From: an uncultured Myxococcales bacterium
Lineage (GTDB): Bacteria > Myxococcota_A > UBA9042 > CAIXZC01
Assembly: GCA_964593355.1 (NCBI GenBank)
Contig: CAZQHM010000021.1
Span: forward strand, 1,565 to 65,564
Direction of reading: 5' to 3'
DNA length: 64,000 nt
Shown: positions 1 to 60,208 of the stretch, in pieces
Layout of the letters: the number at the start of each line of letters is the position of its first letter
How positions within the stretch are numbered: position 1 is the first letter of the stretch
Position numbers and translations under genes: made by a program
The notes under the pieces: generated by a model
What the model was told of the DNA's origin: nothing
The model's input: the letters and a program-made list of their open reading frames with translations, nothing else
Databases searched by the model: none

Positions 1-1455
1 CAGTGTAAGGACAACAATGCTCTGACCTTGGATTTATGTGACGCGCCGACGTTGACATGCAAAAACGAGCCTATAGATACGAATTGTGTCGATGATGGCG
101 ACTGTGCAGACGGCTCGAAATGCATCAACTTCAATTGCGTCGCCGATGGCCTTCAGCCTCAGAAAGATTGCGACAACCAACTCGACTGCGTTGCTGCTTT
201 CGGCCCTTGCGGCGATCAGGATTTTGGAGCGATCTGCGTTGATGGCAAGTGTGACCTGTCTGCTGCCCACGGTTGCTGTGACAAAGGGCTCAGGATTGTG
301 CTGGCGGAGGAGACACTAAAACCGAAGTTGGACTGGCAGCTACAGAGGCTGGCTAACGACTGGCGCGCTGAGGGAGCCTGTGCTGCGGTGTTTTATGTCA
401 ACGAGGAGACTGCGCCGGCAACTATACAGAAACGGCTTCGGGCATACCTCGAGTATGCACGCAGCAAGCCGGGTTTGGTGGGAATTGCTGGACTGTTCTT
501 GGTGGGCAGGATTCGCCCGTTCGCCGTAGAAGTAACTAATGGCAGTGGTGAAACCAATTGGGCTATGACAGACCAAGTATATATGGCGCCTGAAGGTCCA
601 TGGAAAGAGGTTACTTCATCTAGAAGGAGTTGGACCCTTAGTTACTTGACTAAGGATGCAACAGATAAGTATCCATTGGCTGTTGGGCGCATATTGGTGC
701 CAAAGAACATTGGAGGGGAGATAGCTGTTCTGTCTCAATATTTTAGTAAATTACATGCATTTCGGTATGGTGGCAAGGCTGAGTGGAAAAGCGGAAATGG
801 TCGTGCAGTTCTGTTTTCGCCGTATGACTACGCGTATTGGCAAGATCAGCTAGCTGGTATGAAGGCCTTGTTTGGTATTACCACCGTCAATGATCAAGCG
901 GTCTGCTTCGGTACTGGGTCCATTGAGAATATAGATATTGTGCAGGCGCCTGCATCTACAAAGGCTAAACTATTTAACGTGCTGGCACAGCCCTATTATT
1001 GGATGACGGTGGAGAGCCACCTTAATGTTAAGGAATGGGATCTTGCAATTGGAACAGTGACGGCTGAGGAGGTCAAGAGCAGCGCACAGGTGGGTCCAAA
1101 CTTCTTCTGGCATCAGACCTGCCATTCTGGTGAAATTGCCAGGCTGAACCAGGAAGGATACTGGGAGTGGGAAGACGATGCCTATGCGCTGAGGCTTTTG
1201 GGGGTTGGAGCCAACAGGGGCCTTGCGGTTGTGGCAAGGGGTTCGACTGGCCGCGATAGTTGTCACCATGATGTGTTTTACAAGGCATTAGCGAATGGCA
1301 AATCAATCGGGGATGCTCTACGTGAGAAATTACATGTTACGGTAAGAAAGCTGCGTCTGAATGAATTTGACAAGTGTGATATATTTAAGTATTTCGGCTT
1401 TACGACGATTTTATTCGGGGATCCGTTCCTGGTCCCTGGTTCGGTGGAGGAATAA
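1..1455 (+). CDS. 5'-partial Cys-rich secreted protein with possible clan-CD (caspase/legumain/gingipain-like) cysteine-peptidase-like C-terminal domain
   Basis: Frame is open from nt 1, so the gene continues upstream of the window. The N-terminus has CTxDxC / CxDDGDC-type Cys-rich repeats like the N-terminal repeats of the giant gene. The C-terminal part has 'LFLVGRIRPF...TDQVYMA' (resembles C25 'LLVGDHKDIP...SDQVYG') and 'NFFWHQTCHSG' (hydrophobic strand-C-x-S-G, resembles the legumain/caspase catalytic Cys motif). The peptidase call rests on weak motif similarity only. Confidence 0.4.
   Translation, partial: QCKDNNALTLDLCDAPTLTCKNEPIDTNCVDDGDCADGSKCINFNCVADGLQPQKDCDNQLDCVAAFGPCGDQDFGAICVDGKCDLSAAHGCCDKGLRIVLAEETLKPKLDWQLQRLANDWRAEGACAAVFYVNEETAPATIQKRLRAYLEYARSKPGLVGIAGLFLVGRIRPFAVEVTNGSGETNWAMTDQVYMAPEGPWKEVTSSRRSWTLSYLTKDATDKYPLAVGRILVPKNIGGEIAVLSQYFSKLHAFRYGGKAEWKSGNGRAVLFSPYDYAYWQDQLAGMKALFGITTVNDQAVCFGTGSIENIDIVQAPASTKAKLFNVLAQPYYWMTVESHLNVKEWDLAIGTVTAEEVKSSAQVGPNFFWHQTCHSGEIARLNQEGYWEWEDDAYALRLLGVGANRGLAVVARGSTGRDSCHHDVFYKALANGKSIGDALREKLHVTVRKLRLNEFDKCDIFKYFGFTTILFGDPFLVPGSVEE
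1274..1371 (+). repeat. Direct repeat copy A (3' end of gene 1..1455); about 93% identical to 2859..2952
   Basis: 'ttttacaaggcattagcgaatggcaaatcaat.gg.gatgctct.cgtgagaaatt.catgttacggt.agaaagctgcgtctgaat' is shared. Copy A encodes 'VFYKALANGKSIGDALREKLHVTVRKLRL'. Confidence 0.75.
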
Positions 1456-1456
1456 C

Positions 1457-2791
1457 ATGGGAAGCAGGCAACAAGCTTGGTGTGTTTTCGCTGTGCTGGG
1501 CTCTGTGTTGTTCAGTGCTTCCTGCGGGAGTGCCGGCAATATCGTAGCTGCGGACGCTGTGGATCTTGTGAGCAAGGATGGGGTTGAGGTCACTCCGCCC
1601 GTTGATTCCCGGGATGAACACGACCTTGCAGACCCATGCAAGGGCCCGTGCGGAGACTTCGAGTGCGGTGCGGATCCGCTGGGATGTGGGGTCTCTTGTG
1701 GAGTTTGCGAGGTTGGGGAGTGCTCAAACGGGTACTGCACATGTACAGGTAGTTTTACTGTTTGTGGTGACAGTTGCTGTGCCCCAGGTGAAAAGTGCAT
1801 AAGCCAGGGGCATTGCTGCCGGCCTAACTGCTTGGGAAAGTCGTGCGGTGGTGATGGTTGCGGGGGAACCTGCGGCAGTTGTGACGGTCCCGGTACCTGC
1901 ACAGCCGCAGGCGTCTGCGATTCAGTCACATGCGGTGGTGTCGTCTGCCCGATGCACCCGCAGAAGGATTTTGTGGTGTTCTGTAACTCTCGGGACTACT
2001 GCGAGTACCTTTCGTTCTCTGGGGACGAGACTCAGAGTGAGATCTTCGTCCCACCAGGCAGCTTTGAAATGGGGCTCAGGGCTGGAGACTGCATGTTCGA
2101 AGAACTGGTTGACATCACCACGATTTGTACTTACGCACAGCCATCACATGTTGTTACGTTTGCCAAGGGGTATTTTGTTGGCAAATATGAGGTCACAATA
2201 GCGAGATACAGGCAATGCATTCTTGGCGGGTTATGCGCAGAGTTCGATGAATCGGGTTCGATTTGTTTTGATTCGTGGGACGATAATATGCAGCCAATCT
2301 ACATTTACGATGTTCTTCCGGCAGACGCCCCGGCAGTGTGCACCGGGCGGGAAGCGGCAGCGGACTTCTGTTTCTCAATCGGTGCCAGACTGCCGTCGGA
2401 GGCAGAGTGGGAGATGGCGCTCAGGGGTCCGGAGTACAACGCGTACTTTCCCGGGCTGGACTTGGAGCATCCATGCGGGCAGATAGCTTGCTGCGAATGC
2501 GGGGACGGGAGACTCCTGCCCGCTGGCGCAAGTCCGGGCGACGTCTCTGCAACCGGTGCCCGAGACATGATTGGGAATGCAACGGAGAGAGTTCTTGATT
2601 GTTGGCACGATGGGTACTCTGGAGCACCCTCGGATGGGACACCGTTCGACTGGGATTGTGAGAGCGGTTGGCTGGTCGGGCGGGGGGGGGCGGTTGTCAC
2701 TCCGGCGGACCGATTGTACCCGTTCATGCGTGGAGTAAGGTCCTCCTCCGCCCACGGTGGGGTGGGGTTTCGGTGTGTTCGCGAACTGTGA
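1457..2791 (+). CDS. Lipoprotein with Cys-rich N-terminal region and C-terminal formylglycine-generating-enzyme (FGE/SUMF1)-sulfatase-type domain
   Basis: ATG at 1457 lies 2 nt after the stop of the upstream gene, with GGAGG 9 nt upstream. The signal and lipobox are '...VLFSASC'. FGE-domain motifs present: 'GYFVGKYEVT', 'RLPSEAEWEMALRG', 'GNATERVLDCWHDGY', 'RGGAV', 'GVGFRCVREL'. The N-terminal region contains 'CLGKSCGGDGCGGTCGSCDGPGTC'. Confidence 0.75.
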   Translation: MGSRQQAWCVFAVLGSVLFSASCGSAGNIVAADAVDLVSKDGVEVTPPVDSRDEHDLADPCKGPCGDFECGADPLGCGVSCGVCEVGECSNGYCTCTGSFTVCGDSCCAPGEKCISQGHCCRPNCLGKSCGGDGCGGTCGSCDGPGTCTAAGVCDSVTCGGVVCPMHPQKDFVVFCNSRDYCEYLSFSGDETQSEIFVPPGSFEMGLRAGDCMFEELVDITTICTYAQPSHVVTFAKGYFVGKYEVTIARYRQCILGGLCAEFDESGSICFDSWDDNMQPIYIYDVLPADAPAVCTGREAAADFCFSIGARLPSEAEWEMALRGPEYNAYFPGLDLEHPCGQIACCECGDGRLLPAGASPGDVSATGARDMIGNATERVLDCWHDGYSGAPSDGTPFDWDCESGWLVGRGGAVVTPADRLYPFMRGVRSSSAHGGVGFRCVREL

Positions 2792-2823
2792 GAGGTTCCG
2801 GAGCCGGGGGAGCGTTTCGGGGA

Positions 2824-2952
2824 CATTCGGCGTGCAGGCACCCGCATCTACAGAGGTCTTTTACAAGGCATTAGCGAATGGCAAATCAATTGGTGATGCT
2901 CTGCGTGAGAAATTTCATGTTACGGTTAGAAAGCTGCGTCTGAATAGATCTG
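2824..2952 (+). pseudogene. Internally deleted remnant of a paralog of gene 1..1455 (direct repeat copy B)
   Basis: 2859-2952 matches 1274-1371 (~93% nt identity) and encodes 'VFYKALANGKSIGDALREKFHVTVRKLRL'. The preceding 2824-2848 ('gtgcaggcacccgcatctacagagg', VQAPAST) matches 940-964 of gene 1. About 330 nt of the gene-1 interior are missing between the two blocks. No plausible start or full-length frame exists. Confidence 0.5.
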
Positions 2953-3098
2953 ACATTTAGGGGAAGAAAACCTGGGGACGGAGGACGATGACTCATTTGA
3001 CAGATGATTGCTTGTCAGCCGTAACCAAGTCCCACTCGACCTGAGAGAACCGCCCCCATCGGCTTCACCTCTCACCAAAATGAGGCCACGGTTTTCGG

Positions 3099-3743
3099 CT
3101 ATATGGAGCTGACCGCAGTGAAGGTCTTCCCGCTGCCCGTCGCCATCTGAACCAAGGAACGGGGGTGCCCGGCCGCAAGCGACTGTTCAAGATTTGTGAT
3201 GGCCTCGAACTGGCAGTCACGCAGGTTGGACTTCTCAAGCGGAGGCAGGTGGGCAAGTCGGCCCCTCAGAGTCGCACCCTGCGCAAGCCAATCCCGCAAG
3301 GTCTCGGGTCGATGGAACGAGAAAACCCGCCGAGACCGAGGTTCCGGGTCACGTAGGTCTCGGAAGAAGGTCTCGATTCCGGTGCTCTCGTAGCAGAAAG
3401 GGAGAGGAAACTGGGCGTGGGGGATGTGGGAGGGCAGCCCCGTGACATACAGCCCCGATTGCTCGGCAACGCCGGAGAGAGTTGCCCCAACCTTCTTGGC
3501 CTCCACAACACCAACGGCGGCCCGGTCCACAAACAGCAGGTAGTCTGCAGTGCCTCCCTTGACCGGAAACTCTCGCACCGCTACTCCAAGGCTGGCCCCG
3601 AGGTTGACCGAAGCGTAGTCCTGGACAGCCCAGCCGGATAGCTGAAGCTGCCTGTCGATCTGGATGCGTGCTTCCTGCTCAGGAGTCATGCGTAATACTC
3701 CACGTAGATGTCGGACGGTAGCAGGGCATGGGCGGGAGTGCAA
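3099..3743 (-). pseudogene. hsdR: Truncated type I restriction enzyme R subunit (HsdR) N-terminal fragment, ending just after helicase motif I
   Basis: 'MTPEQEARIQIDRQLQLSGW' matches the HsdR N-terminal family. 'ADYLLFVDRAAVGVVEAKK' is the nuclease-like core. 'QMATGSGKTF' is the Walker A / motif I, followed immediately by a stop after 214 aa (full length is expected near 1000 aa). No continuation is found in other frames. Confidence 0.6.
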
Positions 3744-3769
3744 GGATGGAATGTGAAGTCCAGTTTGAC

Positions 3770-3815
3770 CCTACACGGCCGCTGGGTTGATCGAGATATC
3801 TGAGCGGCCGTGTAG
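3770..3815. repeat. Palindromic element copy 1: 13-bp inverted arms around a 19-nt loop containing GATCGAGATAT
   Basis: 'CTACACGGCCGCT gggttgatcgagatatctg AGCGGCCGTGTAG'; a second copy is at ~15614 with compensatory stem changes. Confidence 0.6.
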
Positions 3816-4485
3816 GAATGCAAAGGGGGCCGTCGCTGCATCGGACACGACGCTGTACCGTCTCTTGCTGACGCTGCTCCACACGAACTTCGCTAAGAAG
3901 AGGCTCGGGCCAAAGCGAGAGGTCTCATACACCGTCTTCGATGAGGCCAACCGGCACTTCGTCTCCAACCTCCCCCTCGACCCGCTTGTTTCCGCCTCCG
4001 CTGCGGACTCTCGGCCCCAAGGCCTTCCACACGGCCAACACGGCTTTCTGCCCCAACAAACCCCAAACCCACAATCTGCCCCCTCCTCAGGAGTTGGGCA
4101 AAGCCTAGCCCTAACACGGCGGGTCCCTGGTCCTTCCCCCCGCCCAAGACAGCCTGGAGCATACATCCCCGATATTGGAGTTAACTACCCTGGTGCTCCA
4201 GGAACCTATTGTTATAGATTCTATATTATGGTTAGCGTGTGTGATGTAAATGGAGGCAATTGCACGTCGGACTATGAGTATGGCTATTTTGTCATGGATT
4301 GGGTGGTGTAGGGCCGACGAAGCAGACACATCGGCTTGTCGCTCAACCACTGGGAATTCAGCCGACCGGGACATCGTCATTGGAGAAGGACCATGGGAAT
4401 CGATTTAAGAGCCTCGAACCGACTACTTGGGTTCTGCTCTTGCATTTCAGGTTCTAACTGCGTAGCATCGGTGTCGCCTTAGGCA

Positions 4486-7017
4486 GTGTTCGAGGTCATG
4501 GGGGCTGTTATGAAATGTCAATGCTCGACTAAGCCACGGACTATGTGTCGCATTTGTGGTGTTTGGCGATTCGGTTTACGTTGGCGACAGTTGATGGGGC
4601 TTCTTCCTCTGCTGCTCGGCTCGGCAACGTTGGAGGGTTGTCCCTCCTCCTCTGAGACCACGTCATGGGATGTTCTCGAAGCCAGGGGGCAAGGGGACCA
4701 ATGGGACGTTGGGCTTGATGGGACCTTAAGGGAATCCACAAGGGAATCCACCGTCGCTGACACCCTGGAGATGCTGAGCGAGCTTGACTCTCCCCCTGAT
4801 CTTCTCCCCGACCACCTTGACGACGTACCGGTGCCAGATGTCCAACCTCCTGTGGGAGAGTGCTGCATGTCCGACGGAGATTGCGGCGCCAAGGGCCGGT
4901 GTGTCGGCCCTTATCCCGGTGGCGCAGCGGCTCATGGAGTATGCGCCGAAGTGCCTGGTTCACCACGGTGCTATGCTGACTCCGATTGTCCCACCGGTGC
5001 TGCCTGCGAAGGTGCCAACTGGTGTCAGTGCGGCCAGCATTGCGATCCTCCGGCCCTGCCTGGCTGGTGCGTTTCGCCGGATGCGGGATGCTGCGGCTCA
5101 GACGACGATTGCATCGGGACTGGCGACTGCATTCTGGGCCACTGCCTGGGGGTGAGCTTTGTGGGTGGTGGATTCTGCTGGCACGATGCGAATTGCGAGA
5201 GCAACGAGGAGTGTGTTGGTGAGTTCGTGTGCCCCTGTGGATACAGCTGTCCGGTGGATTCAGCTTTGGGGACTTGTCATGCGTTGGGGCCTGACTGCTG
5301 TGAAACTGATGAAGACTGTGACGGCCAGATATGTCTCCGCAAGACCCCTGCCAGCCCCGGTGTCTGCGGTCCCGAACTTGCGCCGGGCTCGTGCTATTCA
5401 AGCCACGATTGTGCGCCAGGGAACGTATGCAACGGTGCTATGATATGTCAATGCTCCGACAACTGTGCGCCGGCCATGGGCTCTTGTGGCGCCTGTTGCA
5501 CGGACAACAGTTCGTGTGAGGAGGGGTATGTGTGCGTGTTGGGGTCGTGCCGGTTGGCCTCACAGGTGCCTCGGTGTTGGCAAGTGAGTGACTGTACACA
5601 CGATCCCAGTTGCAGTGGCGACGGATGTGCAACGCAGTTCGATTGCCAAGGGGAGGTAATCTGCCAGTGCGGTACCACCTGTGCTCACCAGGAAGTCATG
5701 GGCTGGTGCCTACCGCTTGACGTTCAGGGACCAAATTGCTGTGTGGCTGACAGCGACTGCTGGGAAGGAACGGTCTGCGTACAGGGCAAGTGCCTCATTT
5801 CGCCAGCGGGCGGAGCATGCTGGGAGTCCTCCGGCTGCACTGCGGGCGAAGAATGCATCGGTGCCGAAGTGGAACCCTGTGGTCAACACCTGTGGCCCGA
5901 TTTCCTCCCTAAGATTGGCTGGTGCGGCGGAGCAGCCAAATGCTGCGGCACAGATGCCGAGTGTCCAGCGCCATTGGTTTGTGCCGGCCTTGACTCGGGC
6001 GCCGGCCTGTTGGGCCAATGCAGAGCACCGACCGAAGCGACCAATGACTGCTGGACCGACTCCGAATGTGCACAAGGATTCGAGTGCGTCGGAGTGCTTG
6101 CTTGCGGTTGCGACCCACTGTGCGACAAGGAGCAGGTGGGCTTCTGCGAGAAGACCACCTTTGTGCCGTGCTGTGGTAGCGACGCCGGGTGCCAGGACGA
6201 AGAGCGCTGTGTTGGTAACTTGCCGAACAAGCAAAACGGCCGATGCGTGCCGACGCAGGTGGCAGGCCAGTGCTACGAGGACTCGGATTGCGGAAGTGGT
6301 CAATGTGTTGGGGAAACCACTTGCAGCTGTGAATTGGAATGCTCACCTGTGGCAGGTACGTGCACGGCGCAGCCGCAGTGCTGCGAAACCGACGAGGAGT
6401 GCGAAGACGCTGGCGACGTCTGCGCAGCGGGAAGATGTAAAGCGGTCCCACCATACGGAGCCTGCTGGAGTGACCAGGATTGCCCCGCCCCGGGGATTCT
6501 TGAGTGCCTTGGGGCCTTCGTTTGCCCCTGCAACGAATCCTGCAACCAAAACGATCATGCGGGCGTTTGCATGAGTTCCACAGAGACCTGCTGCGGGACA
6601 GCGGCCCAATGCGGTGAAGGTGATTTGTGTCTCCACACCGGGGCCCCCAATTTGCAGGGCCGTTGCTACAGGCCTGCGGAGTACCCAGAATGCTGGAGTT
6701 CCAGTGATTGCGAGGAGGGAGCAACGTGTTGGGATGCAAATGTGTGCGCTTGTGAAGAAGTCGGCTGTGTTCCGAACATGGGAATGTGCCTGACATTTGA
6801 AGCCTGCTGCGAAGGAGATCAGGATTGTCTGAACACCGAAGTCTGTGTGCATCCAGAAGGGCAACCAACGGCCGACGGCACCTGCAAGTCTCTGGTACAG
6901 CCGGGAAGCTGCTGGAATAGCCAGAGTTGCCCAGCAGGTCAAACTTGCCAAGGGGCCAAAGTGTGTCCGTGCGGCGCCCTCTGTCTGGTTGCCGACCAAC
7001 TCGGAACGTGCCAGTAG
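4486..7017 (+). CDS. Secreted Cys-rich repeat protein (~18 repeats of ~45 aa, 'CCxxDxDC...GxCxxGxC' type)
   Basis: An 843-aa ORF. The hydrophobic N-terminus 'LMGLLPLLLGSATLEGC' suggests a signal peptide, so the true start is probably one of the downstream Met codons (about 4543-4594). Repeats include 'CCGSDDDCIGTGDCILGHCL', 'CCVADSDCWEGTVCVQGKCL', 'CCETDEECEDAGDVCAAGRC', 'CCEGDQDCLNTEVCV'. No catalytic domain is recognised. Confidence 0.7.
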   Translation: MFEVMGAVMKCQCSTKPRTMCRICGVWRFGLRWRQLMGLLPLLLGSATLEGCPSSSETTSWDVLEARGQGDQWDVGLDGTLRESTRESTVADTLEMLSELDSPPDLLPDHLDDVPVPDVQPPVGECCMSDGDCGAKGRCVGPYPGGAAAHGVCAEVPGSPRCYADSDCPTGAACEGANWCQCGQHCDPPALPGWCVSPDAGCCGSDDDCIGTGDCILGHCLGVSFVGGGFCWHDANCESNEECVGEFVCPCGYSCPVDSALGTCHALGPDCCETDEDCDGQICLRKTPASPGVCGPELAPGSCYSSHDCAPGNVCNGAMICQCSDNCAPAMGSCGACCTDNSSCEEGYVCVLGSCRLASQVPRCWQVSDCTHDPSCSGDGCATQFDCQGEVICQCGTTCAHQEVMGWCLPLDVQGPNCCVADSDCWEGTVCVQGKCLISPAGGACWESSGCTAGEECIGAEVEPCGQHLWPDFLPKIGWCGGAAKCCGTDAECPAPLVCAGLDSGAGLLGQCRAPTEATNDCWTDSECAQGFECVGVLACGCDPLCDKEQVGFCEKTTFVPCCGSDAGCQDEERCVGNLPNKQNGRCVPTQVAGQCYEDSDCGSGQCVGETTCSCELECSPVAGTCTAQPQCCETDEECEDAGDVCAAGRCKAVPPYGACWSDQDCPAPGILECLGAFVCPCNESCNQNDHAGVCMSSTETCCGTAAQCGEGDLCLHTGAPNLQGRCYRPAEYPECWSSSDCEEGATCWDANVCACEEVGCVPNMGMCLTFEACCEGDQDCLNTEVCVHPEGQPTADGTCKSLVQPGSCWNSQSCPAGQTCQGAKVCPCGALCLVADQLGTCQ

Positions 7018-7026
7018 CGATCGGAA

Positions 7027-7311
7027 TTATCCAACCAGATGCGCTATGAAGCCCGTCTGCCCGCCGCTGCGCACCACCTCCATTCTCCTTGAGTGGCGGG
7101 CCACTATCTCGTCCACGATGGAGAGACCGAGGCCCGTGCCGTGGTCCTTCCTGGTGAAGAATGGTTCGAACAGCTTCGACACGTCATCTTGGGCAATTCC
7201 CGGGCCGTTGTCCCACACAGCCAGAAATGCCTCCCCAGGTCTGCTCTCCACGACCACCCGCACAAGGCCCCCGTGGGAACCCGTGCACATCCTGAATGCG
7301 GGCAGGAACAC
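7027..7311 (-). pseudogene. Histidine-kinase HATPase_c C-terminal fragment (94 aa)
   Basis: 'FLAVWDNGPGIAQDDVSKLFEPFFTRKDHGTGLGLSIVDEIVARH' covers the G1/G2 boxes of a histidine-kinase ATPase domain. No HisKA or sensor region exists upstream in any frame, so this is a remnant. Confidence 0.5.
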
Positions 7312-25165: not shown

Positions 25166-28100
25166 CTACGGGTTCTGGAACAGATAGATGTCCAGGATGT
25201 AGTTCGCCGTCGCTTCCGAGGGATGAACGGTGGAATAGGATCCGAAGTTCTGGTCAACGATGATGAAGTACCAGCCTGGCACCAGCCGCATTTTCTGGTA
25301 GGTGTCTGAGCCGGGAGTCCAGGAGTCCGGGTAGGCGCCGTAGTCGGCCACAAGCCCGTCACCGTCGGTGCAGACGTACTTGTCTGTGCCAACCTGGTCC
25401 ATAGCCGTGCCTGAGATCAGGTGCAGCCTTGGGCCTCGCCCGGAACTCCACGCGCCGCTCTTCTCCAGCCTGATCCAGACGTAAGATTCGTGCAGCAGCT
25501 GGAACGAGTAGAAGTGGTCCACACCGTCGGCATAGGTGGCTGACCCCACAGGCTTGTTGCACTCAACCGTGGTATAGCCGCTGGATGTCCTCCAGTCGTC
25601 GCGGGCACCACCAAGGTTGGTCCCCGTTCCCGACCAGGTCCCCATGACCGCCAAGTGGCACATGGTCCCCGACTCGCAGTTCTGGTGAGGATCCAGGACG
25701 CTGGCGTTTCCGGCGAAGTCTCTGGGGCTTCTGCAATCCACAGGGTTGGACCCTGCAGACTCGGTTGAGATCTGAGAAGCAGGCTGCATCCAGACCAGTC
25801 CGTCCACTACCTCCCCGTAGGCCGGTCCGCTGCACTGGCAGTCGCCGCACATGCGGTAGTAGGTCATGGAGAGGTTGAAGTCACCCTTGGTTCCGCTGGT
25901 TCCGTCAACTATCACGAAGTAGTTGCGATTCTTCTCGGCGAAGAAGCTCACGGTGCAGCCATCGGCGTCTCCGCAGTGGATGCTGGAGCCCACCACTGCA
26001 CCTCCACAACCATCCTGCCTGACTACCAGCGATGGGTACCACTGGATTGTCTGGTAGGTCAGTGTGGCATGGACCAGCGCCCCCTCGTCGGAGTTGACGT
26101 TGAAGCGGAAGACCCTCTCGGGCTCTGTCAAGCCGTAGGTGTTGCCGCCAGAGAGGAAGCTGTGTGTGCTGGCCGGCGCTCCGAAAGTTGAACCGGCGTA
26201 AGACCTCGTGACGCCACGGTCGGTGCCTACCTCAAGCTGGATTGGGTTGGTGCAAGCGCCACCACAGCACGGTGTTGCCCCCGGCGGGCACGGAGAGGTC
26301 GTCTCGCACCCCTGGCACGCTGTCCCGGCGGCCATGCAGATGTTCTCAGAACAGCAGTTCGAATCGCTGCCGCAGGAGGTTCTGCACAGGGCACCGTCAC
26401 AAACGTAGGGACAACAACTGTACTCCGCCTGAGCGATGCACGCCCCCAATCCGTTACAGATGTTGGGAGGTCTCACGGTGCTGCCCAGGCAAGCTTGGCT
26501 GGTGCACAGCGTGCCGTGAGCCCACAAAGCGCAAGAATAGCCGCTGCCCGAGCAGGAGCCGTTGGTGCCGCAGGTGCCCGGATCAGAAGTTGCACATTCG
26601 TCCATGTAGTCCTGATTGGCAGGAACAAGCATGCAGAGCCCTGAACCGTCACACATACCACATGTGCCACAGTTGTTGTCAGGATCTGTATTTATCACCG
26701 AGAATGAGCAGGTACCTTCCGCACCTACAAGGTTGCACTGCTGGCAATTGCCAGTGCATGCAGTATTGCAGCAGTACCCGTCCACACAGAAGTCCGAGAG
26801 GCACTGGTTGGCACCAGTACAGGTGCTGCCCGTAGGCTTCTTGGGCACGCAGGCGTTGCTGGAGCAGTAGTGCCCCGCTGCGCAGCCGGTGTCGTCAAGG
26901 CAACTGACAGCACAAGAGGCCCCGCTGCAAACATACGGAGAGCAGGTGGCAGTTCCCGAGTCAACGCAGTTTCCTGCCCCATCGCAGAGGTCGCTGGGGT
27001 GCAGCGTAGTACCAGAGCAGGTCTGGGTCACGCACACCGTCCCCGCCACGAAGTTCTGGCATGTGCTGGAACCGCTGCACGTTGCGCAGGAACCGCATTC
27101 GTTCTCGGGGTCGAACCCGGCCCCGATGGGGGTGCAGGTTCCATCGCCAGAGACGTTGCACACCTCGCAAGTGCCGTTGCATGCAGTGGAGCAGCAGACG
27201 CCGTCTACACAATTGCCCGAGAGGCACTGCCCGGCGCTTGTGCAGGTCTCGCCGCCTGCCCTCTTGTTCACGCACACAGAGCCGTTGCACCACGCCGTGG
27301 GGCAGCAGTCCGTGGCCTGAGTGGCCACGGTGCAACTGGTCCGGCAAGCGTTGGTGCCGCACATGTATGGGCAGCAGGAGGAGGTTCCGGCATCGGAACA
27401 TGACCCGGACCCGCTGCAGAAGTCCGCAGGATAGTACGTAGAGCCGCCTGCAGGGCAGCTGGCGGGAGCACACTGGGTTGTTGTGCTCCAGAAGCGGCAA
27501 GCGCCGGCCCCATCGCAGGAGCCGTCGGTTCCGCAGGGGGCCTGGGCGGCGCACTGCTCTTTGGGATCCTGGCCGTCGGTGGCGAACTTGCACGCTCCAG
27601 CACCGTCACAGACCGAGCAGAGCGGGCAGTCACCGTATGAATCTTCGTTGTTTGGCACGAAGTCGCAGGTGCCTTCTTTGCCTGCTACGTCGCAAGCTTT
27701 GCAGTTGCCCTCACAAGAGTTGTTACAGCATACACCGTCTACGCAGAACCCGGAGAGGCACTCGTTGGAGCCGCCGCAGGTTGCCCCGAGGCTCTTCTTG
27801 GCCACGCAGTTGGGGGTGTTGCACCAGAAGCCGCCGGCGCAGTGGGCGTCGTCGCTGCAGTTGGTGGCGCAGGCGCCACCCATGCAAACATAAGGCGAGC
27901 ACTCCACGGTACCCATGTCGACGCAGGTTCCGCCGCCGTCGCACTCATCGGGGACGTAGAGCGTGGAGCCACTGCACGAGGCAGTGGTGCACTCCGTTCC
28001 CGCTGTTGGCAGCCTGCACGCACCGCTCCCGTCGCAGAGCCCGTCGTTGAGGCAGCCGTCGGGCTCGCACTCAGACTCTGGGTCAGTGCCTGCGAGGGCA

Positions 28101-31100
28101 GGGGCGCAAGCGTGCGCAGCGTTGCAGAGCATACAGATGCCACACTCGTTGTCGGGGTCGCTGTCCGGGGCATGCTTGCTGCACGTACCCAGAAGTCCAG
28201 GCAGCGCACACGACTCGCAAGAGCCGTCGCAGGCCGTGGCGCAGCAGTAGCCGTCGACACAGTAGCCGGTGGCGCACTCCTCGTCAGCGGAACAGGTGGT
28301 CCCCGTGGGCTTGTCGTTGAGGCATGCACCGCTTTGGCAATAGGCGCTGGAGCAGCACTGCTCGTGTCCGGTGCAGGCGGTACCGCAGGCATCGCCACTG
28401 CACAGGTAGGGGCAGCAGCTCACGCTGCCTGCGTCAACGCAAGTACCAGCTCCGGAACAGCGTTGGGGGTCGAAGAGTGTGTCCGCCACGCAGCGTTGCG
28501 GACCGCACAGGACGTCTGCCGCCCAGAACTCGCAGGCGCCTGCCACGCACTCTCCAGTGGTGCCGCAGCTCTCTGGGGCCTCCACCGCGCAGTCATTGCC
28601 CGGGTCGGTGCCGTCGGGTGCCACAGTGCAGTAGCCAATGCCGTTGCACGCCTGGCAGAGCCCGCACTCGTTATACGGATCGGTTCCGGAGGCAAACGAG
28701 GTACAGGTTCCTTCACTGCCAGGCTCAGCGCAGCCACGGCATCCACCGGTGCACGACGAGTTGCAGCAGAACCCGTCCACGCAGAACCCCGAGGCACACT
28801 CGCCTGCCCCGGAGCAGGTAAGGCCGTCGGCCTTCTTGGGCACGCAGCTTCCTGACTGGCAGTAGTTGCCGGAGCAACAGTTGGAGTGTGCCGAGCAGGT
28901 AGTGCGGCAGGCGCCGCCGATGTCCGCACAGGTGTAAGGACAGCAACTGCTGTTCGTGCTGCAGCAGACAACCTGGGCCACGGAGGCCCTGGCGGTGCAC
29001 TGCAACGGTACGCTGCCCAAGTTATCCGGATTGGCAGGGCCGGTGTAGTAGCTATCCTCTCCGCACTCGGAGAGCGTCCAGACCCTCTGGGCGTCGATTC
29101 CGCATCCGGCTCCCTGGGCCTCTCGGTTGTTGACCTCGGCCCAGGTGCAGAGCCTTGCATTACGGCTCTCGCAGAGCGCCTTGGCTTCCGAGAAGGAGAT
29201 TGCCACGCCGCAGGGGTCGGCCTCGCTGCACGTTGCGTCGCTTCCTGCCCCGGCATCCCATCCAAGGGTTTCGCAAGAGCTGAGAGCGCCGACGCAGGTG
29301 CCGTCGCCGTCGCAGTACTTCGATGAGCTGAAGGTAGAGCCTGCGCACGAGGGAGAGGAGCAGGAGGTTCCACCGGCCCATAGTCGGCAGGCTCCCTTAC
29401 CGTTGCACTGGCCATCTCTTCCGCAGGTGGATGGAAGCTGTGCCCCGCACTGATTCTTGGGGTCACTTCCTTCGGCTGCGAAGGTGCAGGTGCCAGTTCC
29501 GTTGCAGACCTGGCAGGTGCCGCACTCGCCATCGGGGTCGGAGGTATTGGGAACGAAGGAGCAAGTGCCCAGTTGGCCCGCGAGGGCGCAGGTACGGCAG
29601 GTGCCGGTGCAGCCGCTGTCGCAGCAGACCCCGTCCACGCAGTATCCAGTCTGACACTGGTTAGCCGCCCCGCACGGTGTTCCCAAGGGTTCTTTGGGCA
29701 GGCAGACAGTCCCGGCGCAGTAGTTGCCTGTTGCGCAGTCCGAGTCCAGGGAGCAGGCGGTGAGGCATGCCAACCCTTCAGTGTTGCACCGGTAGGGTTG
29801 GCAAGTCTGAGTGCCGGAGTCGATGCACGAACCGGTTCCGTTGCACATGTCTGCGTTGTAGAGCAGGTCACCCACACACACTTCGGATACGCAGACAGTT
29901 CCGGCGGAGAAGAGCGAGCAAGCGCCTGCCCCATCGCATTCGCCCGAGAAGCCGCACGTTGCCGGGCCCTGCTGCACGCAGTCGTTGAGCGGGTCTGTGC
30001 CCGCGGCAACGGCTTGGCAAGCCCCCGCCCCGTCACAGGCCCGGCAGAGGCCGCACTCATTACCGGGGTCGCTGGCGGCCGGGATGGCGCTGCAAGTGCC
30101 AAGAGCACCGGCCACGGCGCAGGAGAGACAGGTTCCGGCGCAGGCTGAGTCGCAGCAGACGCCATCCACGCAGTAGCCGCTTTCGCACTCAGCCGAGGAG
30201 GAGCAGGTCTCGCCAAGGGCCGCAATGCGCAGGCACTTACCGGCCTCGCAGCGATAACCGTCGCAGCAGTCCGATGCCGAGGCACACATGGTCAAGCAGC
30301 CGCTTCCACCACACTTGTAGGGGCAGCAGCTATCGGCGAAGGCGCAGCATCGGGCATAAGCAAGCCCGGTATTGGCGGTGCACTGCAGGGGCACTGCTCC
30401 GGAGAAGGCAGTGGAGCCTGCCAGAGTGTAGTGGGAATCCTCGCCGCACTCGGAGAGGGCCCACACCCGCTTGTCGTCATAGCCGCACCCGCTGCCCGCT
30501 GCCTCGTTGGCCGAGAGTTCTCCCCAACTGCAGAGTCGAGCGTTCTGGGAAGCGCAGAAGGAGAGGGCTTGTTCAAAGGTGACGAGGCCCGAGCATGGGT
30601 CGGACTCGGAGCAGACCCAGAGGTACCCGGGGGTTCTTTGCCATGCCGAGGTCTCGCAGCCCAGGGTTTCAGCGATACAGGTGCCGTTGCCGTCGCAGTA
30701 GCGAGGCTCGCTGATGGTGTCGCCGGTGCAGGCGTAGCTGGAGCAGAGTGTGCCGGCAGGCCATTGGCGGCATGCGCCCTTGCCGTTGCAGACGCCATCC
30801 AGGCCGCAAGTCGAGGGGTGCTCCGGGGCGCAGTCATTCTTGGGATCCTGGCCCTCGGCGGCGTTGACGCAGGAGCCCATACCGTTGCAGGTTGCGCATG
30901 CGCCACACTCACCAGCGGGGTCAAGACCAGAGCCGATGTTGGTACAGGTTCCGGCACTGCCCGGCATGTTGCAGGCCCGGCACGAGCCCGCGCAGGCGCT
31001 GTTGCAGCAGTAGCCGTCGATGCAATTCCCCGAGACGCACTGCTGTGCCTCGGAACAGGTTGCCCCGTTGGTGAGTTTGGGGACGCAACTGCTGCCGGAG

Positions 31101-34100
31101 CAGAAATTGCCCGCCGAGCAGTGGCTGTGTTCAGAGCACGAGGTTAGGCAACTGGAAGCGCCGCATGAGTAGGGTGCGCAGCTTGCCGAGCCCGAATCGG
31201 TGCAGCTCCCCGAACCGTTGCAAATATCCGCCGGGTAGTAGGTAGAGCCAACGCACGACTCGGCCAGGCACACCGTTGTGGCGTTGAAATTGGCGCAGGC
31301 GCCAGCGCCGTCGCAGGTGCCGTCGAAGAGGCATGTGGCCGGCGCCATGGCGGTGCACTGGTTCTTCGGGTCGGTGCCGGCAGTAGCGGCTTTGCAAGAA
31401 CCGGCACCATTGCAGACTCGGCAGTGGCCGCACTCGTTGCCCGGATCACTGTTATTGGGCGTGAGTGAACAGGTTCCCTCAGAGCCCGATGCGTTGCACG
31501 ACTGGCAAAGCCCGTCGCAAGCCGTTGCGCAGCAGACGCCGTCGGCGCAGAAGCTGGATTGACACTCGAAACCCGCCACGCAGGGAGAGCCCAGTGTCCT
31601 TGGTGCTTCACAGATTCCCGAACCGTTGCAGAAGAAGCCGGGCAAGCAGTCGTCGTCACTGCCGCACACGGTCAGGCAGTCGTCGCCGGCGGCGTTGCAC
31701 TCGTATGGAGAGCACGAGGTGACTCCGCCGTCGGTGCAAACCCCGGGGGCCGTGCAAAGGTCCTGGAGGTAGAGGGTGCCGGCGGAGCAGATCCTGGGAG
31801 CACACTGCGTTCCCACCGAATAGTATCTGCAGGCTCCCGCCCCGTTGCACTCACCATCCAGGCCGCAAGAGGCGGCAGTGCCGGCGAGGCAATCGGCCTT
31901 GGGATCGGTTCCGTCGTCGGCAGCGACGCACAGTGGTCCAGAACCGCTGCAGGCCATACAAAGGCCGCAGTTGTTCTCAGGATCTGTTCCCGCGGGCGCG
32001 GGCGAGCAATTGCCAGGTACGGCGGAGCATGACTCGCACGGGCCGTCGCATGCACTATCGCAGCAGTAGCCGTCGACGCACAGGCCGGAAGCGCACTGTT
32101 GGCCCTCGATGCAGGTCTCGCCCAAGGCCTTTTTGGCAAGGCAGCTGCCCGACGAACAGTAGTTTCCGTCGCAACAATCGGCGCTGTTGGCGCAGTGGGT
32201 AGTACAAGCGCTTCCCGAGCCGTTGCATCGGTACGGGCAGCAGTCTTGCGTCCCGCCGTCGATGCAACTGCCGCTACCGTTACACTCATCGGCAAAGGTC
32301 ATGGTCGTGCCCGAGCACGACCCCGTGGCGCAAACCGTCTCTGAAGGCCAGTAGGCGCAGGCTCCCGAGCCGTTGCAAGAGCCGTTGAGGCCGCAGGAGA
32401 GCGGGTCCGCCTGAGCGCACTGGCTCTTGGGGTCGCTTCCTGCCGACGCTGCGATGCAGGTTCCAAAACCGCTGCAAATGCGACAGAGGCCGCATTCCGC
32501 CTGGGGATCGACGCCGGCGGGGAACGCTGTACAAGTGCCCTCGAAGCCGGGCAGGCCGCAGGAGCGGCAAGAACCGGTGCAGGCTTCGTTACAGCAATAG
32601 CCGTCGACACAGAAGCCCGTGGCGCAGTCCGAGTTCACCGAGCAGGTGGTTCCACCGCTCTGCTTGGCCACGCAGGCGTTGCCAAGACATGTGTAACCCG
32701 TGCAGCAGTCGGCCTCGACGTCGCAGTAGGTTCGGCAGCCCGAGGCGCCGCACTGGTAGGGGCAGCAGGAGCTGGCGTAAGCGCAGCACCGCACCATGGC
32801 CGTACCAGTGGAGGGGGTACAGGCCACGGGAATGGAGCCCAGATTGGCCGGGTCGCCGGCACCCGTGAAGAAAGAGTCCTCGCTGCACTCGGTGAGCGAC
32901 CAAACTCTCTCGTTTTCGTAGCCGCAGCCACTTCCCACGGTTTCGCCAAAGGCGATTTCGTCCCAGCTGCAGAGCCGCCCTCCCAAAGCAGAGCAAATCG
33001 CCACCGCCTCGGTATGGGTCACGGCGCCTGAGCAGGGCTCGGACTGGGCGCAGACCAACTGGCTTCCAGGGTTGACGTCCCAACCCAGCAGGGAGCAGTT
33101 CCCTGTTGGGGCAAGGCAGTTGCCCGAGCCATCGCACACATGTTTGCCCTGGAAATCACTGCCCGTGCAGGCAGCGGCCACGCACTCGGTGCCGCCCTCC
33201 CAGAGCCTGCAATCGCCCTTTCCGTTGCAGACGCCGTCGGGGCCGCAGGTGCTCTTGTCTTCTTGTTCGCACTGCGACTTGAGATCCTGGCCCTCCAACT
33301 GGGCGACGCAGGAGCCTGAGCCGTTGCATGTGTTGCACGTTCCGCACTCGTCGGCCGGGTCATTGTTGAGACCGTAGAAGGTGCAGGTGCCTTCGTACCC
33401 GGAGAGGTTGCAGGTCTGACAGGTGCCCGAGCAGGCGGTGTTGCAGCAGACCCCGTCGACGCACTGCCCGGAGAGGCAGTCGACGCCCACGAGACAGGCG
33501 GCCCCGTTCACCAGCTTGGGCACGCAAAGGTTGCTCAAGCAACGGTGTGATGGAGCACAGCCGCTGTTGTCCGTGCAGGAGGTAGCGCAATTGACCCCGT
33601 CGCCGTCACAGCTGTACGGAGCGCAGGATGTCACTGTTGGTGCGGAGCATACTCCGCTGCCGTCGCACATACGGGCGGAGTAGATGTTACCCGAGAGGCA
33701 GTAGGGTGACATGCACTGGGTCACGGTATCCCACAGTCTGCAGCCGCCGGTGCCGTCGCACTCGCCGTCGAGGCCGCAACTGGATTCCGGTGAAGGGATG
33801 CAGTCATTGGTGGGGTCAAGCCCATTGGGCACTGCCACGCAGGTGTAGTTGCCGTTGCAGACTCTGCAGTTTCCGCACTCGTTGAAGGGGTCGGTATTCA
33901 CCACAAGGGCGCTGCACGTTCCCGGATTCAAGCTGCACGAGGCGCAGGTCTGAGTGCAATCGGTGTTGCAGCAGAAGCCGTCCACGCAATAGCCCGACCA
34001 GCACTCACTGCCTTCGATGCATGTCTGCCCGTTGGGAAGCTTGGGCTGGCACTGCTGAGAGCGGCAGTAGTGGTCTGCAGCGCAGTCAGCATCGGTGTTG

Positions 34101-37100
34101 CAAGCGCCAAGACATCCCGTTCCGCTGCCGTTGCAGACGTAAGGAGAACAATCGATGGTGCCGCTGTCGCTGCAGGTTCCGCTGCCGTTGCAGAGATCTG
34201 GAGCCTCGAAGATCTGGCCGGTGCAAGAGCCCGCTGCACAGATGGTGGAGGGGCCCCAGTAACGGCAGGTTCCGGAACCATCGCAGGTGCCGTCTTGACC
34301 GCAGGTGCCGGGCATGCTCGAGGAGCACTCGAACTTCACGTCGCTACCGGCGCTCTGGGGAGCACATGAGCCAGCTCCATCGCAAGCATTGCACAGAGCG
34401 CATTCGCTCTCAGGATCGCTGTTGGCGGCATAAGGAGAGCACTGGCCCAACTTGCCCGTGAGCCTGCATGAGGAGCAGGTTCCGGCGCATTCGCTGTCGC
34501 AGCAGTAGCCGTCGACGCAGTAGCCCGAGGTGCACTGCTGAGCCGACGAGCAGGTCTGACCGTTGGCCCTCTTGGCCACGCAGCTGGAACCCCAGCAGAA
34601 GTAGCCGGTCACGCAGTGTGCCGAGTCAACGCAGGTGGTCCTGCAATCGAGACCGTCGGCCCTGCAAACGTACGGGTCGCAACTGGTGCTGCCGCCTTCC
34701 ACACACTCGCCCGAGCCGTCGCAGATGTCCGAATTGTTGCGTGTAGAGCCCACGCAACTCTGGGGGGCGCAGAGGCTGGTACTGCTCCAATAGCCACAAC
34801 CGCCCAGGCCGTTGCACTGGCCGTTGAGCCCGCAGGTGGACTCTGCCGACCAGGGGCACTCGTCCATGGGGTCTGTGCCTGCCGTGGCGGCCTTGCACGC
34901 ACCGGCGCCGTTGCACACTCGGCACAGCGAGCAGTCGTTCTCCGGATCCTGGTTGTTTGGCGTGAAGCGGCAGATGCCTTCATAGCCCGGCACGCCGCAC
35001 GAGCGGCACTCGCCAAGGCAGGCAGACTCGCAGCAAACGCCGTCGGCGCAAGCCCCGGTGGTGCACTCACCATCCAGCAGACATGGGGTTCCCGGCGCCT
35101 TGAGAGGCTGGCAAACGCCCAGGTTGCAGTAGTAGCCGCCAGCACACTGAGTGTTATCGATGCAGCTTGTGACGCAATCGGTGCCCACGGCGTTGCATGT
35201 GTAGGGCACGCACGAGACCGTTCCGCCATCCACGCAGGTGCCGAGGCCATCGCAGATATCGGTCTGGTAGCGCGTAGTTCCGGAGCAGTAAGAATTGTTG
35301 CAGGTGACGCCAACGGCGAACAGTCGGCAGTTCCCAGCCCCGTCACAGGCGCCGTCCTTGTTACAAGAGGTGACCGGATCAAGGTCGCAATTGCTCTTGG
35401 GGTCAAGGCCGTTGGCTATCATCTGGCAACCGCCCGCCCCGTTGCAGGCTTTGCAGTGGCCGCAGTTGTTCTCTGGGTCTGTGCCGGCAGGCCAGAAGTT
35501 GCACTGGCCGGGAACGGCGGAGCAGTTCTGGCAGCTGCCGCTGCAAGCTGTTACGCAGCAGTAGCCATCAACGCAGTAACCAGATGCACACTCGCCAGCA
35601 GTTGAGCATGTAGCGCCGTTCGGCTTCGTGGCGACGCAAACGTTGCCGACGCAGGAGAAGCCGGGGGCGCAGTGGGTGTTGGCCGTACAACCGGTTCTGC
35701 ACTCGACCCCTGCGGCATCGCAAGAGTATGGAGAGCAAGACGTGGAGCCCGAATCGGCGCACGAGCCCGACCCATCGCACTGGTCGGGATGGTACTTGGT
35801 GAAGCCGGAGCAAGTCTGAGGAATGCAGATGGTGCCCAAGGACCAGACCTCGCAGCCACCGGTGCCGTCGCATTCTCCCGTGCTGCCGCAAGTCGACGCA
35901 CTTTGGATGTCGCACTCGCTCTTGGGGTCGGTTCCGGCGGTAACGGGTGCGCAGGCCCCATCTTCGCAGACGAGGCAGGTTCCGCAGTCGGTTTCTGGGT
36001 CGGTTCCGTTGGGGAACTCAACGCAGAGACCCTTGCTAGCCGGCAGGCCGCAGGAGCGGCATGGGCCCGTGCAGGCGCTCTGGCAGCAGTAGCCGTCCAC
36101 GCAGAATCCGGACTGGCACTCAGCGCCCGCCATGCATGTTGAGCCGTCGGGCTTGGCGGCCACGCACTTGTTGGCGCTGTTGCAGTAGTTCCCTGTGGTG
36201 CAGTGGGCGTTGGTGGTGCAGAAGGTCCTGCAAAGGGTGCCCACGGTGTTGCAGACATAGGGGTCGCAGGCTACGGCGAAGCCGGTGATGCAGGTGCCCG
36301 AACCGTTGCACACCGACGCCATGGTGCGGGTGGAGTCGGTGCAGTTGGTGGGCACGCACACGGTGCCAGCGGTGTAGAGGCGGCAAGAACCGGCTCCGTT
36401 GCAGGTGCCGTCCTGGCCGCAGGTGGCCACGTCATCCTGCTGGCACTGGGCTTTGGGGTCCAGGCCGGCGGCAACGTTTGTGCACGAGCCTGCTCCGTTG
36501 CAGACCATGCAGTGGCCGCACTTGTTCTGAGGATCCTGGCCTGCGGGCGAGAGGATGCATGTGCCCTCGCTGCCTGGCTGGCCACACGAAGCGCACAGTC
36601 CGTCGCAGGGTGAGCTGCAGCAGAATCCTTCGACGCAGTAGGAGGACTCGCACTGTTCGGCCTCGCTGCACGGTGAGCCCACGGTTAGCTTCGGCTGGCA
36701 CTCACTAAGCGCATTGCAGAAGTGAGTGGAGACGCAGTCGGCGTGGGTATTGCAGGAGGCAAGGCAGCTATCGCCTGCCGGGTGGCAGACGTAGGGTTCG
36801 CAAGAGACCGAGCCGCTGACGACGCAACTGCCGCTACCGTCGCAGTAGTCGTCGAGGGTCAGCGTTGTTCCCGAGCATGTCCTGGCGTTGCAGACTGAAC
36901 CCGGAAGGTAGGTTCGACAAGCCCCGGTGCCGTCGCACGTGCCATCGAGGCCGCAGGTTGAGACCCCGGCATCTTCGCAATCGTCGGCTGGGTCAACTCC
37001 TGTGGGCACAAGCTGGCAACCGCCGGCCCCGTCGCAACCCCAACATGTGGGGCAGTCGTCTTCGGGATCCATGTTGATTGCTTCGGGGGTGCAGAGGCCC

Positions 37101-60049: not shown

Positions 60050-60208
60050 GATTACCTCCAAACCAGAGCCCCGTGGGGCCACAATGTGGCGGATTCTGCC
60101 TCATTGGGTTGGCCAAATCAAGGCTGGGGGAGGGGGTTCGCCGTAATCACTTGAATTCCGCGGGGGACTCTGAAAATATCATGTAATCTTGTGGCCTTGG
60201 AGGTCTTC

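Follow-up and report, generated by a model that had tools for sequence, protein, structure and literature searches.

A conserved gene pair coding for a gingipain-fold protein and a predicted FGE-sulfatase-fold lipoprotein among the Cys-rich genes of an uncultured Myxococcales bacterium

Are neighbouring genes for Cys-rich proteins variants of one scaffold onto which a genome swaps functional domains, or are they built from distinct module families? The question is raised by one end of a 64,000-nucleotide stretch of DNA from an uncultured Myxococcales bacterium (contig CAZQHM010000021.1, positions 1,565 to 65,564 of the forward strand), the whole of which is hereafter called the window. Three open reading frames (ORFs) of the plus strand, all present in the ORF list of the window, are concerned: G1 (1..1455), G2 (1457..2791) and G3 (4486..7017), with a Cys content of 3.9% (window part), 9.5% and 14.8%, respectively. 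A sequence-only reading had proposed that these genes share Cys-rich repeats with each other and with a giant gene further along the window, and that they are alternative versions of one design, in which a modular Cys scaffold carries different cargo domains. The comparison of sequences and gene order leads to a different picture, in which G1 and G2, instead of being alternatives, form a conserved adjacent gene pair kept together in three other divergent lineages. On balance, we favour the interpretation that the region codes for exported, disulfide-stabilised mosaic proteins drawn from three module families, with G1 and G2 as a cassette and G3 independent of it.

G1 has no start in the window, where only the 3' part of the gene is found (the last 484 of 941 codons, 1..1455) and codes for the end of an apparently exported, Cys-rich, C25-like peptidase. 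Its full form is P0007, a protein of 941 residues which matches it at 100% identity over the C-domain and whose gene lies directly upstream of G2 on the source contig. G2 (1457..2791, plus strand) combines a lipoprotein-type signal, an acidic linker, two copies of an 8-Cys motif, here called the knot, and a domain of the formylglycine-generating enzyme (FGE)-sulfatase fold, recognised by PF03781. At the junction of the two genes (1447..1459, plus strand), a Shine-Dalgarno-like GGAGGA sequence (1447..1452) inside the 3' end of G1 is followed by the TAA stop (1453..1455), a single base and the ATG of G2 at 1457. As the start codon of G2 stands one base past the stop of G1 and behind the GGAGGA site, the two genes are probably translationally coupled.

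The same arrangement is found at three further loci (signal peptides and lipoboxes of all proteins were judged by eye). In the first (L120), the protein P0008 has a C-domain 42% identical to that of G1 and the same Dicty_CTDC-plus-C25-like architecture, and it is followed after 2 nucleotides by a 484-residue protein, which aligns with 406 residues at 45% identity to G2 and features a LAAC lipobox, both knots, the spacer between them and the FGE-fold domain. In the second (L124), P0009 is 28-29% identical to G1, and 40 nucleotides further on lies the gene of a lipoprotein of 452 residues with a LAAC lipobox, two knots and an FGE-sulfatase match at E 7e-46. In the third (L129), P0010 (L129:87-1709) is 27% identical to G1 and is directly followed by the two-knot and FGE-fold architecture, the start of the G2-type gene overlapping the upstream stop by one base. 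Dicty_CTDC-like Cys repeats run in frame upstream of the called start of P0010, which indicates that this start was called too far downstream and that the architecture is as in G1. Across the three loci identity drops in step for both partners, from 42 to 28 and 27% for the peptidase domain and from 45 to 35 and 34% for the FGE domain, and the genes on either side of the pair differ from locus to locus.

Some observations weigh against giving this pairing a wider meaning. Its conservation is based on four lineages, the source included, and gene adjacency is the sole link between G1 and G2. Moreover, the FGE neighbour is absent beside the more distant C25-like relatives P0011 and P0014, so that the coupling is limited to one subclade. 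A metagenome scan for G1 relatives with the pattern L[AK][NHQ]D[WY][RVA]AEG returned 89 raw matches, of which 0 were confirmed.

Within these bounds, a physical or functional interaction between the two products can be envisaged. G1 would be a gingipain-like peptidase, secreted or located at the surface, with a disulfide stalk of about 500 residues of the Dicty_CTDC-like type, and G2 would be tethered to the membrane by its lipid, with the two knots as a rigid spacer. The FGE fold is described as C-type-lectin-like, and this domain of G2 would bind a ligand or the peptidase itself, so that the lipoprotein would serve the secreted G1 as a surface-tethered partner for recognition, docking or regulation. 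G3, outside the cassette, would probably be an independent, lipoprotein-like rigid surface stalk or adhesive filament. A more ambitious combination, which we consider less likely than not, holds both that G1 and G2 are a dedicated extracellular proteolytic system, with G2 as obligate receptor or activator, and that the knot is an uncatalogued, ancient disulfide-domain family of Myxococcota, other bacteria, archaea and giant viruses. If this were true, the coupling between clan-CD peptidases and FGE-sulfatase domains, to date known only from metacaspase fusions, would be a general functional partnership which reaches C25-like enzymes.

Those fusions are the closest precedent for the pairing of G1 and G2. 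FGE-sulfatase domains were found fused to 33 of 671 bacterial metacaspases, which are clan-CD peptidases of family C14, and the authors speculated that such proteins may need formylglycine modification as well as proteolysis (Asplund-Samuelsson et al. 2012, PMC3501461). In both systems a clan-CD cysteine peptidase is recurrently coupled to an FGE-sulfatase-fold domain. However, G1 is C25-like rather than C14, the two components are encoded by adjacent genes rather than by a fusion, both appear to be exported, and the FGE-fold partner is a predicted lipoprotein with Cys knots. The role of FGE-sulfatase folds beside clan-CD peptidases has attracted little attention since the metacaspase count of 2012, and as separate exported proteins of a conserved operon G1 and G2 would offer a cleaner test of whether an FGE-fold domain binds, positions or regulates a peptidase.

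If G1, G2, G3 and the giant gene were instead paralogues on one Cys scaffold, with cargo domains swapped in this genome, their Cys-rich regions should resemble each other. These were compared with hhalign and with hidden Markov models (HMMs), the HMM cross-tests being judged against 300 composition-preserving shuffles. The N-terminal units of the giant gene are about 33 residues long and follow the pattern CCxxDxDCxDGxxCTxDxCxxxxC; they match Dicty_CTDC with 48.8 bits (Pfam cutoff 27). The HMM of these repeats gave 26.1 bits on the N-terminal region of G1 (shuffle maximum 8.1), and Dicty_CTDC itself scored G1 below the cutoff of 27, at 23.6 bits for the full-length protein and 18.8 for the window part (residues 2-25). 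Taken together, these two matches indicate that G1 and the giant gene share a repeat family, as a common scaffold would have it. The resemblance is to the Dictyostelium CTDC repeat (PF00526), a type that G1 and its orthologues likewise appear to carry, with the difference that the bacterial units start with a CC-x5-C extension which lies outside the 24-residue Pfam model.

For G3 the likeness is much fainter. The giant-repeat HMM gave 8.2 bits on G3 (shuffle maximum 9.5), and with the HMM of the G3 repeats the giant repeats scored 12.4 bits (shuffle maximum 7.1) and G1 scored 7.2 (shuffle maximum 5.7). Between G3 and the giant repeats, hhalign aligned only the first 15 columns, with the common opening CCxxDxDCxxGxxC and a probability of 59-67%, and gapped BLASTP with G3 found weak similarity, of 30 bits with G1 (E 6e-4) and of 34 bits with P0009 (E 3e-5). 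The repeats of G3 may be a distant derivative of the broad Dicty-type class. For G2 there is no such link: the giant-repeat HMM found nothing on G2 or on the knot of a MopE-like lipoprotein of the same window, and the knot compared with the other two module types gave HMM z-scores below 2 and hhalign probabilities of 0.4-4%, a 50-sequence knot profile included. By these comparisons, the knot is unrelated to the repeats of G1, the giant gene and G3, and three module types are distinguished: Dicty_CTDC-like repeats in G1 and the giant gene, the 8-Cys knot in G2 and the MopE-like lipoprotein, and a 12-Cys repeat of about 70 residues in G3. In all of them the many cysteines would be expected to form disulfide bonds outside the cytoplasm.

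The proposal that the repeats are common to all of these genes accordingly survives for G1 and the giant gene, which group together, fails for G2 and is not confirmed for G3. The fact that C25-like domains of other lineages are joined to other accessory modules (CARDB, CarboxypepD_reg and a tail of the type IX secretion system, T9SS) fits the idea of exchange between scaffold and cargo. On the other hand, the Cys region of G2 is a different module, the likeness between G3 and the giant gene is limited to 15 residues, G1 and G2 are inherited together as a pair, and the knots, as detailed below, are not a recent intragenomic copy. A single scaffold for all four genes is therefore judged unlikely; the model is largely refuted for G2 and only weakly supported for G3.

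The knot itself was correctly seen as common to G2 and the MopE-like lipoprotein gene at 60191. The two sequences, CLGKSCGGDGCGGTCGSC in G2 and CAGKQCGNDGCGGTCGSC in the latter, are identical at 15 of 18 positions. The window holds exactly two occurrences of the back-translated pattern, and 100 shuffles gave 0. The DNA of the two knot cores is about 79% identical by hand count, with third-position differences, a divergence by which a recent duplication between the two genes was ruled out; they are alike because both are near the conserved consensus of the family. For a census, a degenerate DNA pattern was scanned against a set of genomes in which each GTDB species has a single representative. 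The scan returned at least 119 genome loci, mostly of Myxococcota, with at least 264 copies of the knot, all in frame in long ORFs and up to 11 in tandem. Among the matches listed, 63 of 80 loci carry labels of Myxococcota, Myxococcales, their families, Deltaproteobacteria or Bradymonadales, and the others belong to Patescibacteria, Woesearchaeota, Acidobacteria and other groups. The consensus reads C-x-P-x-C-x-G-[KR]-x-C-G-x-D-G-C-G-G-[ST]-C-G-x-C-x2-G-x2-C, the last Cys of the knot being variably placed a few residues past it.

The partners of the knot are diverse. In 58 complete knot-bearing ORFs of other genomes, 36 different Pfam families were found, including GH43, GH32, CAP, protein kinase, PAD_porph, subtilase, PPC, TIG and FGE-sulfatase. 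The idea of a scaffold joined to varied cargo is thus right for the knot, as a statement about the phylum and not about this genome; what does not hold is its extension to one family of scaffolds. Proteins with up to 11 knots gave no Pfam match on the knots and no NCBIfam match at E<=1, and a literature search for "DGCGG" returned nothing relevant. The knot is therefore a widespread, promiscuous module without a Pfam or NCBIfam model, apparently uncatalogued. It abounds in predatory or social Myxococcota, and many large "hypothetical" surface proteins would be better annotated once it is defined.

Outside the genomes of the census, the pattern CG.DGCGG.CG.C was observed in 18 IMG/VR contigs (L130-L147), where as many as 5 copies stand in tandem. 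Giant-virus metagenome-assembled genomes (MAGs) and a 504-kb contig are among these. The knot is also present in MAGs of Patescibacteria and Woesearchaeota (L005, L021, L061, L070). Such a distribution over viral, Patescibacteria and Woesearchaeota contigs suggests a module that is very broad or horizontally spread. One protein (L051:1521-4688) joins eight knots to a Porphyromonas-type peptidyl-arginine deiminase domain, and another (L115:1701-3584) has six knots before a MYXO-CTERM sorting signal; both architectures, which come from other genomes, point to a cell-surface location for knot proteins. Searched against the PDB, the knot profile matched nothing but the N-terminal disulfide hairpin of NKG2D C-type lectin-like domains, over 16 residues (E 0.004 to 0.6). 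The match falls in profile columns 18-35, the C-terminal half CGxCxxGxxCxxGxC; this resemblance is probably generic and was not used, curious as it is in view of the C-type-lectin-like character of the FGE fold.

Viewed as a whole, the region holds ordinary mosaic, disulfide-rich envelope proteins typical of the group, with no sign of a new kind of system. What is new is modest, namely the conserved gene pair of a C25-like peptidase and an FGE-fold lipoprotein, and a widespread knot without a model.

The sequence-only reading had also assigned a C-terminal domain like clan-CD peptidases to G1, an FGE-sulfatase domain to G2 and none to G3, and on this point it is borne out. In the window, G1 begins with the end of its Cys-rich region (4..279, plus strand), made of a Dicty_CTDC-like unit (4..75) and a further Cys-rich unit (85..279) which closes with a conserved CC at the border of the C-domain. 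The latter (268..1452) is identified as a gingipain-fold (C25-like, clan CD) peptidase domain by an AlphaFold2 (AF2) model, Foldseek and a profile search. The model reached a predicted local distance difference test score (pLDDT) of 83.7 and a predicted template modelling score (pTM) of 0.89 and has the caspase/gingipain alpha-beta fold of C25; its top Foldseek match was gingipain R (1cvr, E 9.2e-10, template modelling score 0.63), followed by Csx29 and separase, both of clan CD. A profile of the G1 family searched against the PDB also ranked gingipain R first, at E 0.03. The C-terminal 390 or so residues of G1 compared with PDB sequences gave only noise, and a word-indexed homologue search with G1 returned no match; an exhaustive search of 1.84 billion representative proteins recovered 17 relatives, none of them a fusion of C25-like and FGE-sulfatase domains. 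Five of these relatives pass PF01364, the C25 family (cutoff 23 bits): P0014 with 44 bits, P0018 with 41.2, P0020 with 33.1, P0016 with 31.4 and P0023 with 26.5.

Alignment columns place the putative catalytic His of G1 at 1018..1020, in SHL, and the putative catalytic Cys at 1120..1122, in QTCHSG, both on the plus strand. The order of His then Cys, each after a hydrophobic strand, is that of gingipain R (RgpB of Porphyromonas gingivalis), and the family ends in a gingipain-like GDPF/L motif (GDPxL in gingipain), which is GDPF in G1. The enzyme of P. gingivalis is exported, as G1 would be by the hydrophobic, signal-like segment at the N-terminus of P0007. The differences are considerable: sequence identity is about 14%, and G1 has neither the Ig-like or haemagglutinin domains of gingipain nor its T9SS C-terminal domain. 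Unlike gingipain, G1 carries the N-terminal Cys stalk of about 500 residues, and its host is Myxococcota-like and not of the Bacteroidota. The C-domain of G1 is nonetheless established as a divergent gingipain-fold domain which keeps the His/Cys dyad, and on the strength of these residues it may well be an active peptidase.

Two findings speak against that activity or against the family assignment. Pfam gave no C25 (PF01364) match on G1 at E<=0.1, and the residue after the catalytic His, Gly in most relatives (HG), is Leu in G1 (HL), a replacement which makes peptidase activity uncertain. They would be expected if the domain were a pseudo-peptidase, a gingipain-fold binding domain in a set of purely structural or adhesive surface proteins, and the relative P0014, with Glu in place of the catalytic His, would add to that case. 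Yet both dyad columns are invariant across the four closest relatives and both residues are present in G1, as are the hydrophobic strands before them and the terminal GDPF, kept as in gingipain, so that a loss of activity is quite improbable here.

The next point is the nature of the protein encoded beside G1. G2 starts with a lipoprotein-type signal ending at Cys23 (1457..1525), and an acidic linker separates it from knot 1 (1637..1738); a CC-rich spacer leads to knot 2 (1817..1918), both knots being defined by the 8-Cys motif. The FGE-sulfatase-fold domain follows (2030..2782, all on the plus strand), matching PF03781 over profile positions 2-255 of 255 (E 1.6e-26, 94 bits, cutoff 23.3). Against a lipid anchor it may be said that the signal reads VLFSAS-C and that the SASC lipobox is non-canonical, albeit judged compatible with the PROSITE lipobox pattern. 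The orthologues in L120 and L124 have canonical LAA-C lipoboxes, and G2 is taken to be a membrane-anchored lipoprotein.

The best solved relative of the FGE-fold domain is PvdO (5hha, E 6.5e-9). PvdO acts in an oxidative maturation pathway, and both PvdO and PorK/GldK are periplasmic proteins or lipoproteins without the FGE catalytic cysteines, to which G2 can be likened. Its NCBIfam matches to PvdO and GldK are weak, the equivalog scores being far under the cutoffs (41.5 vs 500 and 15.7 vs 350, respectively), and its score against the EgtB equivalog model is also far below the cutoff. G2 differs from PvdO and PorK/GldK in the two 8-Cys knots at its N-terminus and in the genomic partner beside it. 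In the alignment with human FGE (2aft), the region of Cys336 and Cys341, GGSYM[S/C]HRSYCYRY, corresponds to the Cys-free stretch GGAVVTPADRLYPF in G2, and the orthologues of G2 have no clear C-x4-C at this place. The absence of these cysteines indicates an FGE-fold protein that is not a formylglycine-generating enzyme, and with the copper-binding catalytic residues missing the domain is most likely a binding module. That G2 might be a working formylglycine-generating or related oxidising enzyme which modifies G1 or another exported substrate, as the strong FGE-sulfatase match, the tight conserved linkage to a cysteine-dependent enzyme, the kinship with PvdO and the speculation about metacaspase fusions could suggest, is the least probable of the explanations considered, given that both catalytic cysteines are absent, that no clear C-x4-C is found in the orthologues and that the ORFs of the window include no sulfatase gene in the neighbourhood.

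G3 (4486..7017, plus strand) is of a different make. A signal h-region ending in LEGC (4594..4641) is followed by an acidic linker of 73 residues (4642..4860; 18 D/E vs 3 K/R) and by ten repeats of about 70 residues with 12 Cys each (4861..7014); no other domain is present, as the repeats reach the last residue. They are strongly self-similar (self-HMM z = 79 vs shuffles). The TLEG-C lipobox is non-canonical, which counts against a lipoprotein; the homologues of G3 are lipoproteins with acidic linkers and 6-10 repeats, and two of them, P0003 (VAG-C) and P0005 (LVA-C), have canonical lipoboxes. The only families touched by the repeats are Dickkopf_N (PF04706) and DUF7107 (PF23416), and G3 itself remains below both cutoffs, with 16.4 bits for the former (cutoff 24.6) and 16.1 for the latter (cutoff 25). 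A two-repeat piece reached 22.4 and 18.9 bits, and among the homologues P0004 passes Dickkopf_N with 34.4 bits and P0003 passes DUF7107 with 25.0 bits. In contrast with these families, the unit of G3 is a 12-Cys repeat of about 70 residues. A profile search of PDB sequences with the repeat gave nothing significant, and an AF2 model of one repeat (pLDDT 84) found no fold match in the PDB (best E 4.8). Draxin, which has a Dickkopf-like domain, was among the non-significant fold matches, and no fold is assigned.

The closest homologue of G3, 60% identical, lies in an unrelated gene context, which argues that G3 is not part of the cassette of G1 and G2. Near this homologue, a separate protein of 526 residues (L123:5011-6591, minus strand) matches Dicty_CTDC with 60.9 bits, so that the two types of Cys repeat recur together in related genomes, unfused.

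In the window, G3 is bracketed by two gene fragments of the minus strand. Between G2 and G3 lies a restriction/helicase fragment (3099..3743) with HSDR_N and the first 42 of 164 ResIII positions; it is a 214-residue N-terminal piece, for which the annotation of the source contig calls a 196-residue ResIII gene, and it is outside the system of G1, G2 and G3. Directly after G3 comes a 94-residue C-terminal piece of a HATPase_c gene (7027..7311). Fragments on both sides hint at a past rearrangement or insertion around G3. The window, part of a metagenome contig of 65,871 nucleotides (ENA ERZ27257504 k141_80660), has a G+C content of about 60%, and housekeeping genes of a chromosome are present in it, namely those for Mur ligases, PheT, AspRS and hybrid histidine kinases.

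The other bearer of the knot in the window is the MopE-motif lipoprotein gene (60191..61288, plus strand; PF11617, E 1.6e-21), with the lipobox LAAC at 60209..60265 and one knot at 60302..60400. The giant Cys-rich ORF (25166..51271, minus strand) codes for 8701 residues, 12.8% of them Cys, and has a lipoprotein-like N-terminus, the Dicty_CTDC-type repeats described above and three proprotein-convertase P-domains. The corresponding P_proprotein stretches fall two in the first 3000-residue piece and one in the second, and after them runs a long series of Cys-rich repeats of about 170 residues (a visual estimate), interrupted by other modules.

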